The notes under the pieces are model-generated. The model made no database searches. It was not told the origin of the DNA and saw only the letters and a program-made list of their open reading frames with translations. From the NCBI GenBank assembly GCA_016286445.1, contig JAEESS010000001.1, forward strand, positions 35,736-99,735: a stretch of 64,000 bases of DNA. The letters are read 5' to 3'. Of the stretch, positions 24,045 to 34,642 are shown piece by piece; position 1 is the stretch's first letter, and every line of letters begins with the position of its first letter. The stretch is from Bacillota bacterium. Lineage in GTDB: Bacteria > Bacillota > Clostridia > Christensenellales > CAG-138. A program made the position numbers and the translations under genes.

Positions 24045-24242
24045 TTAGTGAAGATTCTTTTCCGCGTACGAAATCATACGCTTGACCATTTCACCGCCGA
24101 TGCTGCCCGCTTCGCGCGAGGTCAGATCGCCGTTATAACCCGGCTTCAGATCGATATTCAAAGAGGATGCTACTTCGCTCTTGAAAGACTGCAGCTTGCT
24201 CTTGGAATCGGAAGACGTATTGTTATTGCTGTTGCGTGCCAT
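24045..24242 (-). CDS. Alpha/beta-type small acid-soluble spore protein (tandem paralog)
   Basis: KSEVASSL..GDLTSREAGSIGGEMVKRMI; GGAGGTG RBS. Confidence 0.95.
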   Translation of the reverse strand: MARNSNNNTSSDSKSKLQSFKSEVASSLNIDLKPGYNGDLTSREAGSIGGEMVKRMISYAEKNLH

Positions 24243-24394
24243 GTATTTCACCTCCTGTCAGCTTTGATGCTCTTAATTTCTGCAAAGTTCGCAGAATTAT
24301 GAACGGAAAAATCTGTATCTGCGATTCGGAAATCTTGCTTGATTGATGATTCGATGTGTAGTATAATAGATTGAAAATTTATGGAGAATTTAAG

Positions 24395-25804
24395 ATGAAC
24401 AACACGAATTTTGTATCGGAATCGGAGCTTTCGAGACAGAGAGACATGGCATTGACACTTGCGAAAGAGATCGTTCCGCGAAAACTGACATTTTTTGTGG
24501 AAACATTCGGCTGTCAGATGAACGTTCGTGACAGCGAGACGATCAAGGGCTGGCTTTCGCTGATCGGATATACGCAATGCGAAAGCAAGGAGCATGCGGA
24601 TTTTGTTTTGTTCAATACCTGCTGTGTCCGCGAACACGCGGAAAAGCGGCTGATGGGCAATATCGGCGCACTGAAGGAGCTGAAAGACGCAAACCCGGGA
24701 CTGATCATTGCAATCTGCGGCTGCATGATGCAGCAGGAAGGAATGGCAAAAAAGCTTCTGAAGCGATTTCCGCACGTCAGCCTGATTTTCGGAACAAATG
24801 CGCTGCATCGTTTTCCGGAAATGCTGAATGCCGTTCTGAACGGTGAGCGAATTGCGATGACGGATCGCGCCGGCGACGCGATCGCGGAGGGGCTTCCGAA
24901 ACTGCGCGACAATCAGCGCAGCGCGTTTGTCAATATCATGTACGGATGCGACAATTACTGCTCCTACTGCATCGTGCCGTATGTTCGCGGACATGAGCGT
25001 TCCCGCATGCCGGAGGATATCCGATCCGAAATCGTTTCGCTCGTCGAAACGGGCATTACGGAGATCACACTGCTCGGACAGAATGTCAATTCTTACGGAA
25101 ACGACGGATCAACGGGCATGCGGTTCGCAGAGCTTTTGCGCTATGTATCGGACGTACCGGGATTGAAGCGGATCCGGTTTATGTCGTCCCATCCGAAGGA
25201 TCTGAACGAGGACGTCATGCAGGCGATTGCGACGCTTCCGAATGTCTGCCATCATGTGCATCTTCCGGTACAGTCCGGCAATAGCGAGATTCTGCGTCGG
25301 ATGAACCGGAAATACACGCGCGAGCATTATCTGTCCATCATAGAGAATCTTCGGAAGCTGGTTCCGGACATTGAATTTACGACGGACATTATCGTGGGAT
25401 TTCCCGGTGAAACGGAAGAAGCGTTTCGGGATACGCTTTCCTTGGTCGAGGAGGTCGGTTTTGCGGCGGCATTCACGTTTGCATATTCTCCGAGACAGGG
25501 AACGGTCGCAGCAAGGATGGAGGATCAGATCCCGGAGCCGGTCAAAAAACAGCGGCTGCAGGCGCTGAACGAACTGCAGGCGCGAAAAACGGTTGAGAAT
25601 AACGAAAAATACATCGGACATGTCGGAGAGGTGCTTGTAGAAGGATACGACGAGCGCGGGGAAGAAACGCTGCTGTACGGAAAATACCAGAATTTCAAAA
25701 TGGTGTATTTCCCGGGATGCAGGGAGCTTCTCAACCGATATGTCACGGTAAAAGTCACAAAGTCCAGCAAAAATTCATTATTGGGAGAAATGATCGATGC
25801 ATGA
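24395..25804 (+). CDS. miaB: tRNA-2-methylthio-N6-dimethylallyladenosine synthase
   Basis: TFGCQMN, NTCCVRE, GCDNYCSYCIVP radical SAM motif, TRAM domain. Confidence 0.96.
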   Translation: MNNTNFVSESELSRQRDMALTLAKEIVPRKLTFFVETFGCQMNVRDSETIKGWLSLIGYTQCESKEHADFVLFNTCCVREHAEKRLMGNIGALKELKDANPGLIIAICGCMMQQEGMAKKLLKRFPHVSLIFGTNALHRFPEMLNAVLNGERIAMTDRAGDAIAEGLPKLRDNQRSAFVNIMYGCDNYCSYCIVPYVRGHERSRMPEDIRSEIVSLVETGITEITLLGQNVNSYGNDGSTGMRFAELLRYVSDVPGLKRIRFMSSHPKDLNEDVMQAIATLPNVCHHVHLPVQSGNSEILRRMNRKYTREHYLSIIENLRKLVPDIEFTTDIIVGFPGETEEAFRDTLSLVEEVGFAAAFTFAYSPRQGTVAARMEDQIPEPVKKQRLQALNELQARKTVENNEKYIGHVGEVLVEGYDERGEETLLYGKYQNFKMVYFPGCRELLNRYVTVKVTKSSKNSLLGEMIDA

Positions 25805-31488: not shown

Positions 31489-32710
31489 AATGATCAAAGC
31501 GGCAGAGGAACGCTCTGCAAATGCTTTTAAAAGATCGGAGAAGATCGCTTTGCTTTGTCAGGAGCGTGTTTTGAATGCGTTTCAGACGCACAGGATCTCA
31601 GCAAGGCATTTTGCGCCGACGGAGGGATATGGATACGACGACATCGGACGCGACGCTTTGGACGATGTGTTTGCAGATGCGCTGAATGCGGACGCGGCGC
31701 TGGTTCGTCCGCAGATCGCGAACGGAACGCACGCCATCTTTCTGGCACTGTCCGGTACACTGGAACCGAACGACACCGTTCTGTCGCTGACCGGAACGCC
31801 GTACGACACGCTTGAAAGCGCAGTCGGGCTGAACGGTGATCTTCCGAACGCGCTTTCACGGTTCGGGATCCGTTTTCATTCGGTACCGCTCTTGGAGAAC
31901 GGTATTGATTTTGCATGCGCAAAGAAGGAACTGCAGAGCGATCCGACGATCAAAATGGTCTATCTGCAGCGTTCGAGAGGGTATGCATGGCGCGATGCGC
32001 TTTCCATTGCAAAAATCCGGGAGGCAATCGCGTTTGTACGGTCGATTCGGAGCGATGTAATTGTATTTGCGGATAACTGCTACGGCGAGTTTACGGAGGA
32101 AGTTGAACCGACGGCGGTCGGCGCGGATCTGATCGCAGGCAGCCTCATCAAAAACTGCGGCGGAGGCATCGCGCCCACGGGAGGATACATTGCGGGCAGA
32201 AAGGACCTGATCGAAGCGGTCTCGTTCCGGCAGACGGTTCCCGGCTGCGGAAAGGAGATCGGCTCTTATGCGGCGTCCTACCGTCCGTTCTACCAAGGGC
32301 TGTTTATGGCGCCGCATACCGTTGCGCAGTGCCAAAAAAGCGCGATCCTGTTTTCGGCACTGTTTGAAATGCTCGGGCTGAAGACGCTTCCGCATGTTGA
32401 CGACGCAAGGAGCGATATCATTCAATCGGTGATGTTCCGCACAAAGGAAGAGATGATCGCCTTCATGCAGGCGGTGCAGGGGGCGGCGCCGATCGACAGC
32501 TATGTCGTTCCGGAACCCTGGGATATGCCGGGGTACGCCGATCCGGTAATCATGGCGGCAGGAACGTTTGTGCAGGGCGCAACGACGGAGCTTTCCGCGG
32601 ACGGTCCGATCCGTCCGCCGTATACGGCGTATCTGCAGGGGGCGTTGACGTATGAACACGCCGTGCTTGCGGCAAGAAGCGTATTAAAAGCGTTAATAGC
32701 TGCGCATTAA
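31475..32710 (+). CDS. Methionine gamma-lyase family / aluminium resistance protein (YnbB-like)
   Basis: GYGYDDIGRD, LQRSRGY, DNCYGEF, AGSLIKNCGGG, IMAAGTFVQGAT. Confidence 0.92.
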   Translation: MEINEMIKAAEERSANAFKRSEKIALLCQERVLNAFQTHRISARHFAPTEGYGYDDIGRDALDDVFADALNADAALVRPQIANGTHAIFLALSGTLEPNDTVLSLTGTPYDTLESAVGLNGDLPNALSRFGIRFHSVPLLENGIDFACAKKELQSDPTIKMVYLQRSRGYAWRDALSIAKIREAIAFVRSIRSDVIVFADNCYGEFTEEVEPTAVGADLIAGSLIKNCGGGIAPTGGYIAGRKDLIEAVSFRQTVPGCGKEIGSYAASYRPFYQGLFMAPHTVAQCQKSAILFSALFEMLGLKTLPHVDDARSDIIQSVMFRTKEEMIAFMQAVQGAAPIDSYVVPEPWDMPGYADPVIMAAGTFVQGATTELSADGPIRPPYTAYLQGALTYEHAVLAARSVLKALIAAH

Positions 32711-33304
32711 GCCGGTCACACAACCGAGAATTTCGACGGCGTCGGCAGTATAAAACATCGGAGAAAAGGCTTCGTTTTCCGGACGAAGCTCGATCTCTTT
32801 TCCTTTTTGGAAAAAACGTTTTACGGTTACTTCGCCGTCGTTAACGCGGGCGACGACGATATCGCCGTCCTGAGGGGGAGTGCCGGTTTCGACAACGATG
32901 ATGTCACGATCGCATATCCCGGCGTTTTTCATGCTTTCGCCGTCGATGCGCAGCAGAAAGGCGTCACTGCGAAGTCCGTGCAGCAGCATCGAGGGAACGG
33001 GGAAGCAGTCCTCGCGGTTTTCGTGGGCAAGAATCGGAACGCCGGCGGCAACCTTGCCGAGCAGCGGAAGAGACGTTATTTTTGCGTGAGAGGCGTCGGA
33101 AACGATGTATGCGCGTTTCTTGTTCGGATCGGAAGCAAGAAGTCCCTCCTCCGACAGCATGCGCAGATACCGATGCACGGAGGCGGGGGAAGTCAGACCG
33201 ATGCCGTCGCAGATTTCACGGACGGTTGGCGGATATCCGTTGCGTTCGGTTTCGGAAAGAATGAATTGATAGATCTTTTCTTTTGCCCCGTCGATTTTTT
33301 TCAT
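32693..33304 (-). CDS. lexA: SOS repressor LexA
   Basis: GYPPTVREI HTH, LGKVAAGVP cleavage site, GESM serine, TVKRF lysine. Confidence 0.96.
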   Translation of the reverse strand: MKKIDGAKEKIYQFILSETERNGYPPTVREICDGIGLTSPASVHRYLRMLSEEGLLASDPNKKRAYIVSDASHAKITSLPLLGKVAAGVPILAHENREDCFPVPSMLLHGLRSDAFLLRIDGESMKNAGICDRDIIVVETGTPPQDGDIVVARVNDGEVTVKRFFQKGKEIELRPENEAFSPMFYTADAVEILGCVTGLMRSY

Positions 33305-33322: not shown

Positions 33323-33362
33323 AGTATAACAGAAGATGATCCAAAATGCAAACAAATGTTCG
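33323..33362 (-). promoter_or_regulatory. lexA promoter with SOS (Cheo) box
   Basis: CGAACATTTGTTTG at 33349-33362 overlapping TTGCAT-17-TATACT. Confidence 0.85.
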
Positions 33363-33371
33363 CAAAAGACG

Positions 33372-34472
33372 CTATTTTTCTGAATCAGTCGAAAAATCTG
33401 CAGGAAATTCGGGCGTGTTTTCGCGTAATTTGATGTATTTTGCAGCTTCATGGCTTTTTTCTTCGGTCATGGCGGCATAATGCTTTCGCGTGGTATTGAC
33501 GTCCTTGTGACCGAGCACATCCGCAACCAGGTAGATATCGCCGCTCTCCTGATACAGCATCGTACCGTAGGTGCTGCGAAGCTTATGCGGCGTGATCTTT
33601 TTGAGCGGCGTGGAGATCTTGGCATATTTTTTTACAAGATTTTCAACGGCGCGCGGCGTGATTCGTTTGCGCTGCATGGAAAGAAAGAAGGCGGTTTCGT
33701 GCCCGGGAAAGGGGATGACCGTCTTGCGCTCTTCAAGATATTCCAGAAGAGCCTGCGCCACTTCCGGACCGAACGCAAGCGTCATCTGATTGCCGCCTTT
33801 GCGCGTAACGATAAATTCGTTCTTGGAAAAGTCGATGTCATCGAGATCAATCCCGACAAGCTCGGAGATACGGATTCCGGTTCCGAGAAACAGGGAGAGG
33901 ATTGCCACATCGCGGAGCTTCGTCGCATCATGGTAGCGTCGCTGCGCCGTCGTCATGCCGCTTCCTTGCTCGACCGTGTCCAAAAGATCGGCAACTTCGT
34001 TCGCTTCCAGACGGATAATCGCCTTTTCGTGCAGCTTCGGCGTATCGACCAATGCGGCACAGTTCGTTTGAATCAGTGATTTTTTGTATAAAAACTTAAA
34101 TAACGATCGTATAGCTGATAATTTACGGGATTTTGCGCGTTCGTTGTTTTCGACAAGCTTTTGACCGTCCTGTGTTTCTTCCCGATACAAAGAGATGTAT
34201 TCGAGATACAGCTCGATATCAAGGGAGGAGAGGAGCTCCATATCGGAAAGCTTGAGCTGCTTCGGAAGCTTTCCGCTGAAGCGTTCGATCTCACCGGAAG
34301 TCAGAAACCGAAAGAACTTCCGAAGATCGACTGCGTAACCGTAGCGCGTCAGGACTGACGTGGTCGGCTCGACAGCCCGGAAATACAGCGCGCAGAAATC
34401 CGGCAGCTCGGAAAGGATATTCCGGAAACGCGATGTGTAATCCAGCTTTTTTTGCATCTGATAATCGCTCAT
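33372..34472 (-). CDS. Tyrosine recombinase, XerS-like
   Basis: GTGIRISEL, VTRKGG, TPHKLRST, LGHKDVNTT..HY catalytic R-K-H-R-H-Y set; long N-terminal extension (LPDFCALYF) as in XerS. Confidence 0.9.
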   Translation of the reverse strand: MSDYQMQKKLDYTSRFRNILSELPDFCALYFRAVEPTTSVLTRYGYAVDLRKFFRFLTSGEIERFSGKLPKQLKLSDMELLSSLDIELYLEYISLYREETQDGQKLVENNERAKSRKLSAIRSLFKFLYKKSLIQTNCAALVDTPKLHEKAIIRLEANEVADLLDTVEQGSGMTTAQRRYHDATKLRDVAILSLFLGTGIRISELVGIDLDDIDFSKNEFIVTRKGGNQMTLAFGPEVAQALLEYLEERKTVIPFPGHETAFFLSMQRKRITPRAVENLVKKYAKISTPLKKITPHKLRSTYGTMLYQESGDIYLVADVLGHKDVNTTRKHYAAMTEEKSHEAAKYIKLRENTPEFPADFSTDSEK

Positions 34473-34525
34473 AAAAGCCTCCGAAACGGTAAGGGACAGA
34501 ATTTTACTTCTGCGGTTATTGTAAC

Positions 34526-34563
34526 ACAACTATTCGTTAAAGACAAGTTTAACGAATAGTTGT
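34526..34563. other. Candidate dif-like recombination site overlapping the recombinase promoter
   Basis: Perfect inverted repeat ACAACTATTCGTTAAA-GACAAG-TTTAACGAATAGTTGT; minus-strand TTGTCT-17-TACAAT promoter overlaps it. Confidence 0.7.
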
Positions 34564-34606
34564 TTACAAAAATGACATGAATCCGGCAAATTTCAGCGTC
34601 GACATG

Positions 34607-34642
34607 AAAAAACTCCGGACTTTTCGGCGAAATCCGGAGTTT
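34607..34642 (-). terminator. Intrinsic terminator after rnhA
   Basis: AAACTCCGGA/TCCGGAGTTT stem with A run on + strand. Confidence 0.75.

Follow-up and report, generated by a model that had tools for sequence, protein, structure and literature searches.

In this study, a 64,000-nucleotide (nt) stretch (hereafter the window) of contig JAEESS010000001.1 from the Bacillota bacterium assembly GCA_016286445.1 was analysed for a tyrosine recombinase gene and the palindrome in front of it. We believe it highly probable that this palindrome, at 34526..34563 (no strand assigned), is the dif site, the site of chromosome dimer resolution, of an Xer system with one recombinase, and that the adjacent open reading frame (ORF) at 33372..34472 on the minus strand, whose translation is an XerS-like protein of 366 amino acids (aa), encodes that recombinase. 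A preliminary description of the window had claimed such a one-protein system for a clostridial lineage, and the claim is supported by the uniqueness of the palindrome, its conservation, its position at the replication terminus, and the kinship of the protein to XerS.

The arms of the palindrome, at 34526-34541 and 34548-34563, are perfect inverted repeats of 16 nt, 100% complementary both in the output of the repeat finder and in the sequence itself. The 6-nt spacer at 34542-34547 reads GACAAG on the plus strand and CTTGTC in the gene orientation, in which the whole palindrome is ACAACTATTCGTTAAA-CTTGTC-TTTAACGAATAGTTGT. The arms can be extended to about 22 nt if one C (34525) is bulged. The 16-6-16 geometry and the extension had both been described before and were recovered here, whereas the gap between the recombinase ATG and the palindrome, given earlier as 54 bp, is 53 nt when counted from the sequence. 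The arm was found at a single place in the 2.65-Mb, 109-contig assembly of the window (G000), and a half-site weight matrix run over 2.65 million positions scored 57.6 at the palindrome and 11.4 at the runner-up. The palindrome is beyond chance. The few other perfect palindromes of such size in G000 have G+C-rich stems between A and T runs and resemble terminators. A terminator or RNA hairpin was rejected for the host copy, which has an A+T-rich stem, is followed by no T run, and lies upstream of the predicted transcription start. A half-site near another integrase on contig C1 (score 9.5) falls in the 3' end of a small ORF ending in TAA and was taken as chance.

In the proposed mechanism, one recombinase monomer would sit on each of the identical arms, and FtsK would probably bring the two sites of a dimeric chromosome together at the septum. 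Strand exchange by the four monomers would then take place at the edges of the 6-bp spacer, with a Holliday junction as intermediate, and would resolve the dimer into monomeric chromosomes. An FtsK gamma domain was found in G000 (102.7 bits, in an open frame of 941 codons). Identical arms give no cue to which strands are exchanged first, and this order can be set only by an outside factor or, as in loxP, by the asymmetry of the spacer. If the system works in this way, it would offer a natural setting in which to ask how strand exchange is ordered by a single recombinase whose site is fully symmetric.

Conservation of the site and its position at the replication terminus

Of 61 related genomes, 53 have a high-scoring and mostly single match to the recombinase, as do 36 of the 38 of high quality. 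A plain palindrome search over 30 loci from these relatives located the site in 28, at most 200 nt upstream of the gene; in the other two, the site lies 255 nt upstream (L024) or is imperfect (L028). In four loci (L014, L017, L026, and L027) matched changes have occurred on both arms, so that the symmetry is kept; the paired changes are ACATCT/AGATGT, CTCTTCG/CGAAGAG, and ACATTGCG/CGCAATGT. The core common to the order is AACTAT-n-CG-nn-AAA, 6 nt, and TTT-nn-CG-n-ATAGTT. The spacer is stable inside lineages and differs between them (CTTGTC, CACAAG, TACAAG, and CACAGC). The strict site pattern was matched in 35 of the 61 relatives, once in 34 and twice in one, and the reversed control pattern was matched in none. 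The conservation of the site beside orthologues and its single copy, both proposed earlier as checks, thus held across the order and in 34 of 35 relatives with a strict match, respectively.

The weight matrix was then applied to 115 loci, 35 from relatives and 80 from GenBank records. Among the 35 loci from relatives the site was upstream of the gene in 34, and in G041 it lies 1.26 kb upstream, just beyond the edge of the locus. In 93 of the 115 loci the best matrix match was above the G000 background and no more than 800 nt upstream of the gene; this test is independent only for part of the loci, because the matrix was built from 54 of the same 115.

A scan of one genome per species yielded at least 594 matching stretches. 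The best 80 of them belong, by record titles, to Christensenella, Oscillospiraceae, Lachnospiraceae (including Blautia, Dorea, Mediterraneibacter, and Hungatella), Caldicoprobacterales, and Defluviitaleaceae. In an even sample of 251 genomes from the class, the recombinase was matched at E<=1e-60 in 61, with scores of at least 400 bits in 35 and of 220-260 bits in 26, and whole families were either positive or negative. If the site and gene act as proposed, the module would extend single-recombinase Xer systems to a large part of Clostridia, including gut Christensenellaceae, Oscillospiraceae, and Lachnospiraceae.

The distance of the gene from dnaA was 48-53% of the chromosome in all five complete (single-contig) relatives, and a local switch of GC skew was found 0.3-2.6 kb from the site in the four that were sampled. 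In G045 (2,422,126 bp; dnaA at 1,254,057; gene at 24,207-25,217, 51% from dnaA), twenty 20-kb samples gave negative skew from about 25.6 kb to dnaA and positive skew over the other half. The sampled sign flipped only at these two places, and the local cumulative maximum was at 25,634, about 0.3 kb from the site. In G040, which adjoins Christensenella in the tree (2,560,186 bp; dnaA at 910,801; gene at 2,269,467, 53%), the skew flips at dnaA and the cumulative maximum, at 2,269,332, is about 1.3 kb from the site. The gene positions in G531 (3,132,933 bp; dnaA at 1,015,606), G593 (2,449,552 bp; dnaA at 1,391,672), and G061, by its record title a chromosome from a Christensenellaceae metagenome-assembled genome (MAG; 3,703,795 bp; dnaA at 3,240,346), were 2,528,262, 115,594, and about 1.42 Mb, which is 48%, 52%, and 49% from dnaA, respectively; the local skew maxima of G531 and G593 were 2.6 and 1.3 kb from the site, respectively. 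The module is oriented either way relative to the replichores. A site at the GC-skew inflection, another check proposed for the window, was therefore found in complete relatives, opposite dnaA. The module could also serve as a simple terminus marker for draft genomes and MAGs.

These results bear on the possibility that the gene encodes the integrase of a mobile element, intact or a remnant, with the palindrome as its attachment site. Modules for integration do share this layout of gene plus site, a likeness that Le Bourgeois et al. pointed out for xerS/difSL (PMC1914069), and phages bear similar sites. However, mostly one high-scoring gene is present per genome in the relatives, its phylogeny tracks taxonomy, and its position opposite dnaA is constant. 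Its neighbours are housekeeping genes, with lexA directly downstream in 44 of the 115 loci. As the preliminary description had stated, no excisionase, cargo, or att duplication was seen nearby, and neither a second site nor a direct repeat was seen. We therefore consider a mobile element extremely unlikely.

The recombinase and the known single-recombinase systems

The best NCBIfam match of the recombinase is XerS, with 196.3 bits over residues 9-347 on positions 3-356 of the 360-position model (193.4 bits in the genome search of G000). The XerC model TIGR02224 and the XerD model TIGR02225 gave 160.9 and 146.4 bits against cut-offs of 335 and 329.6, respectively, and both failed; the XerA model gave 153 bits and the Phage_integrase domain 109.5 bits. 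The residues R201, K225, H296, R299, H322, and Y332, the full catalytic set, are invariant across 14 orthologues. The nearest solved structures are those of E. coli XerD (5e-21) and archaeal XerA, and XerH (PDB 5jjv) is weaker (E=1.4e-7). With a profile of the 14 orthologues, members of the clade scored 470-609 bits, XerS-model-positive proteins 138-148 bits, and XerD-model-positive proteins 103-113 bits.

In a maximum-likelihood tree of 54 proteins, the clostridial clade (SH-aLRT 99) joins the XerS-model-positive clade (99), apart from XerD and XerC; the tree was made by a "quick" method that gave long-branch warnings, and its XerS references are model-positive proteins from genomes of 5.6-7.3 Mb, none of them streptococcal XerS. 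VTRKGG and TPHKLR, the XerS-like traits claimed earlier, are present, and the length of 366 aa was confirmed. TRKG and HKLR are common to the recombinase clade and the XerS-positive proteins and are not found in XerD, and the XerS-model-positive proteins carry several insertions that the recombinase clade does not have. The protein had been called XerS-like, and this stands in so far as XerS is closest by model and by tree. By the NCBI rule, however, it is not a member of XerS: judged from its sequence, it belongs to a distinct and much larger clostridial clade.

Four loci, L182-L185 (G083, G247, G361, and G211), in 5.6-7.3-Mb genomes of another family, passed the XerS equivalog cut-off with 382-385 bits. 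The 220 nt upstream of these genes were viewed by eye, and no related palindrome was seen there that would bridge the two site types. A paralogue near the XerS-model-positive genes (L189) has lost catalytic residues. A 327-aa relative, L188 (G198:C19), branches between the clostridial clade and XerS, and upstream of it lies CAACTATGCGCTAAA-TATCAA-TTTAATACAGAGTTG, an imperfect version of the candidate dif site. Recombinases at a similar intermediate score (220-260 bits) account for the 26 weaker matches in the class sample.

Studies have shown that single-recombinase Xer systems occur in streptococci and lactococci, epsilon-proteobacteria, archaea, and Legionellales. XerS and XerH are the bacterial systems named in the 2022 Legionellales paper (PMC9765430), and a 2017 review adds archaeal XerA. 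XerCD-type dif sites were predicted in 97 of 100 Firmicutes having XerCD orthologues (Kono 2011). No description of an XerS-like/dif module in Clostridia was found in the literature as far as its text was available, including the available parts of PMC3025954, PMC5357621, PMC8136486, and PMC8138268; the Kono 2011 list may hold a prediction for some Clostridia.

The system most similar to the one in the window is XerS/difSL of Streptococcus and Lactococcus (PMC1914069, PMC2965235). In both, one recombinase of about 360 aa, which here probably acts alone, is encoded next to a site that lies in a conserved stretch directly before the gene, the two form one module at the replication terminus, and the site has two inverted arms around a short central region. 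The minimal lactococcal difSL was printed as ATCTTTCCGAAAAACTGTAATTTTCTTGACA, and its left half is the first 13 nt, as determined from variants without one half (Nolivos 2010, PMC2965235); in the arm comparison this half is ATCTTTCCGAAAA(A). If difSL is divided as 14 + 6 + 11, the left arm becomes ATCTTTCCGAAAAA. Counted by eye, with no statistic, 9 of its 14 positions agree with the arm of the window (AACTATTCGTTAAA) and 12 of 14 with one arm of the Lachnospiraceae variant, ATCTTTTGGAAAAA, which is obtained by reverse-complementing the arm found in L155, L163, and L164. The sequence had not been recognised earlier as any described dif, but by this count its arms resemble the left half of lactococcal difSL, and it is probably not unrelated to known dif sites. 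The likeness of the arms, in keeping with the protein tree, suggests common ancestry of the two sites.

There are also differences. The arms of difSL are unequal and imperfect, whereas those here are perfect 14-16-bp repeats. XerS/difSL belongs to Streptococcaceae, whereas the modules here belong to Clostridia (Christensenellales, Oscillospiraceae, Lachnospiraceae, and others), and in the genus of the window the site includes a predicted promoter. An acquired origin of the streptococcal XerS system was put forward as speculation by Le Bourgeois et al. (PMC1914069). Our results suggest a wider clostridial family from which streptococcal XerS/difSL branched off or to which it is sister.

XerL/dif of Legionellales also combines a single recombinase with long uninterrupted inverted repeats at the terminus, and mobile elements exploit its site, as phages may do here; however, XerL is of an unrelated recombinase lineage, and in L. 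pneumophila a distance of over 400 kb separates xerL from dif (PMC9765430), unlike the neighbouring gene and site here. In XerH/difH of Helicobacter and Campylobacter (PMC2731167; PDB 5jjv/5jk0), one recombinase of comparable length is genetically linked to a palindrome close to the peak of the skew, but its sequence similarity to the recombinase here is weak compared with that of E. coli XerD.

The occurrence of other Xer genes was used to weigh whether a second recombinase is involved. In the order of the window, canonical XerD is rare: only 2 of the 61 relatives have a match over the XerD cut-off, and 5 more have matches of 220-280 bits. The recombinase is the sole XerD-model match at E<=1e-25 in G000 and the only full-length Phage_integrase match in G058, which is 95% complete. 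In the class sample, XerD-model matches at E<=1e-65 were found in 152 of the 251 genomes, and 12 of the 35 genomes with a strong orthologue also have such a match, 7 of them over the cut-off. The view that genomes of the class carry either the XerS-like gene or XerD but never both was therefore rejected; the two systems are negatively associated rather than exclusive. In G531, G479, G041, and G521 the XerD-model gene (G531:C1:2508682-2509509, G479:C1:152409, G041:C1:970080, and G521:C11:95969, respectively) is 20-35 kb from the XerS-like gene and thus near the terminus.

This co-occurrence, together with the unequal arms of Lachnospiraceae sites, would suit a site shared by the XerS-like protein and an XerD-like partner, at least in lineages with unequal arms. 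Such a two-recombinase site is very unlikely in our view, since XerD is so rare in the order to which the window belongs, G058 lacks a second tyrosine recombinase of full length, and the identical arms here mean that one binding specificity suffices.

Several points weigh against a dif site served by one XerS-like recombinase. The co-occurrence of XerD in 12 of the 35 class genomes is one of them. Of three genomes with L182-L185 that were checked, two have XerD over the cut-off and one has it just below (307 bits). A canonical XerCD pair could be present elsewhere in the organism, for G000 is an 82% complete MAG in 109 contigs. The recombinase is below the NCBI XerS equivalog cut-off (NF003462, 267 bits), and the composition of the matrix and of the tree given above also counts here. 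The arms are perfectly symmetric, unlike those of difSL, at which unequal arm affinity with preferential binding of the left arm is thought important (PMC2965235). The phage copies of the site described below have no XerS-like gene close by in the 80 loci examined, and another protein may read the arms. On the window's own contig (C31), the cumulative skew over 40-90 kb has its local peak at C31:70,420, some 120 nt away from the site. Between 90 and 125 kb, however, the skew returns to positive values before turning negative, and the peak for the whole contig lies at 125,195, so that this contig alone is ambiguous on the terminus. The reversal at 90-125 kb, partly beyond the end of the window, could be an inversion, a misassembly, or a local effect of gene strand.

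Copies of the site in viral contigs and a prophage-like region

The core arm pattern was found in at least 118 IMG/VR contigs, and we estimate that 24 specified positions would be matched by chance far less than once. Eighty of the viral loci (L206-L285) were examined. No XerS-like ORF (at least 350 bits) was found within 900 nt of the site in any of the 80 loci, and a weak tyrosine recombinase match of any kind was found in only five. In 75 of the 80 loci, no ORF of 100 aa or more runs across the site. The site lies 1-281 nt after the stop codon of one small-ORF family in 29 loci and 5-33 nt after the stop codon of an unrelated second family in 11; both families were taken as small-terminase-like. 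Members of the first family gave weak matches to small-terminase PHROGs, and in 20 loci with the site after such a small ORF, mapped in detail, ORFs of about 470-650 aa commonly come next on the same strand.

In G007, of the same genus as the window, a second site was found at L336:10732 in a prophage-like region (L336, G007:C7:15001-35000). The order there is a GP3_package small terminase gene (terS; 41 bits), the site with spacer TTGCTC, the large terminase gene (terL), and a P22-like portal. A blastn search with the prophage region of terS plus site gave no match among GenBank phages.

The spacers of the viral copies are highly variable: 42 different spacers were counted among the 80 loci, and a spacer also seen in a host site was present in only two. 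Arms that are kept while the spacer varies are expected if the arms bind protein and the spacer need only match that of the recombination partner. Identical arms stand beside two unrelated neighbour families, which argues for one shared reader of the arms; the simplest candidate is the host recombinase rather than the terminase of each phage.

Cre of phage P1 acts as one recombinase on loxP, in which perfectly symmetric arms surround an asymmetric spacer, and P1 places loxP near pac. Unlike P1, which encodes Cre, the phages here hold only the site and would need the enzyme of the host. We speculated, with rather more doubt than confidence, that these phages borrow the XerS-like enzyme of the host and use a recombinase-less copy of the dif arms after the small terminase gene to circularise terminally redundant DNA or to resolve multimers. 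The viral site would sit beside the start of headful packaging, a Cre/loxP-like function outsourced to the host, and a private spacer would avoid crossing over with the chromosomal dif. The main alternative for the phage copies is a host transcription factor that reads the same arms.

If functional, the phage-borne copies would be a new way for tailed phages to exploit host Xer, and we regard them as the part most deserving of follow-up. The palindrome at 34526-34563 would then be the reference copy of a recognition sequence common to a bacterial order and its virome. For gut anaerobes that are hard to engineer, a genetic tool might also be made from a compact host-encoded recombinase and its palindrome of 34-38 bp, in which the spacer is free.

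The promoter and the neighbouring genes

A sigma-70-type promoter of the recombinase gene was predicted at 34518..34546 on the minus strand; it reads TTGTCT-17-TACAAT, is TG-extended, and overlies the spacer together with the gene-proximal arm. The -35 hexamer TTGTCT falls within the spacer and the -10 hexamer TACAAT lies just beyond the arm. The same extended -10 promoter had been described over the palindrome and was recovered independently by the promoter scan. A -10-like hexamer follows the arm at a fixed distance in loci of the same genus. In G040 and G045, the probable -35 and -10 hexamers come shortly after the site, on its downstream side. The overlap of promoter and site is kept in the genus and some sister genera and not order-wide, and autorepression is therefore plausible in this genus, not a conserved property. 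For the window, this overlap points to possible repression of the recombinase's own promoter by site-bound recombinase, an idea to which we would give a little less than even weight.

A promoter over the palindrome would also suit a mere operator for a dimeric transcription factor, either the recombinase as repressor or another host protein, with the true recombination site elsewhere. Such a factor would control the recombinase-lexA region, and the phage copies would be operators for the same host factor. A fixed spacer of 6 bp with free sequence between conserved arms is suitable for a dimeric DNA-binding protein, and the arms occur without a nearby XerS-like gene in all 80 viral loci examined. 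However, the module is at the skew switch in every complete genome with sampled skew, the promoter overlap is not conserved, as G040 and G045 illustrate, and the arms resemble, by eye, the XerS-binding half of difSL. Between terS and terL, the phage copies follow a stop codon, where no promoter arrangement is evident; the arms do not contain the GAAC-N4-GTTT box of the local lexA, and no other conserved candidate site was seen beside the gene. An operator is thus unlikely, and we still prefer a dif site for the palindrome.

The remaining features of the module are the ribosome-binding site GGAGGC before the recombinase ATG, read from the sequence at 34477..34482 (minus strand), and the terminator hairpin of rnhA at 34610..34642 (minus strand), which parts the transcript of rnhA, upstream of the recombinase gene, from the site and promoter. 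On that flank, rnhA is accompanied by a SPOR-domain ORF and a histidine kinase gene. The other flank has lexA, a Met_gamma_lyase-family gene, miaA, and two large ORFs, which are putatively mutL and mutS from size and order alone.

The lexA gene at 32693..33304 (minus strand) is directly downstream of the recombinase gene, with its own promoter at 33323-33352 and a GAAC-N4-GTTT box at 33347-33364. The palindrome was also considered as a LexA operator and rejected, for its arms hold AAC-N5-GTT, the wrong spacing relative to this box. In the 44 related loci with lexA directly downstream, the two genes are on the same strand, and in six more loci lexA is within about 1 kb. A link between the SOS regulator LexA and dimer resolution is possible. 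In five Lachnospiraceae loci, lexA is on the opposite strand, upstream of the recombinase gene.

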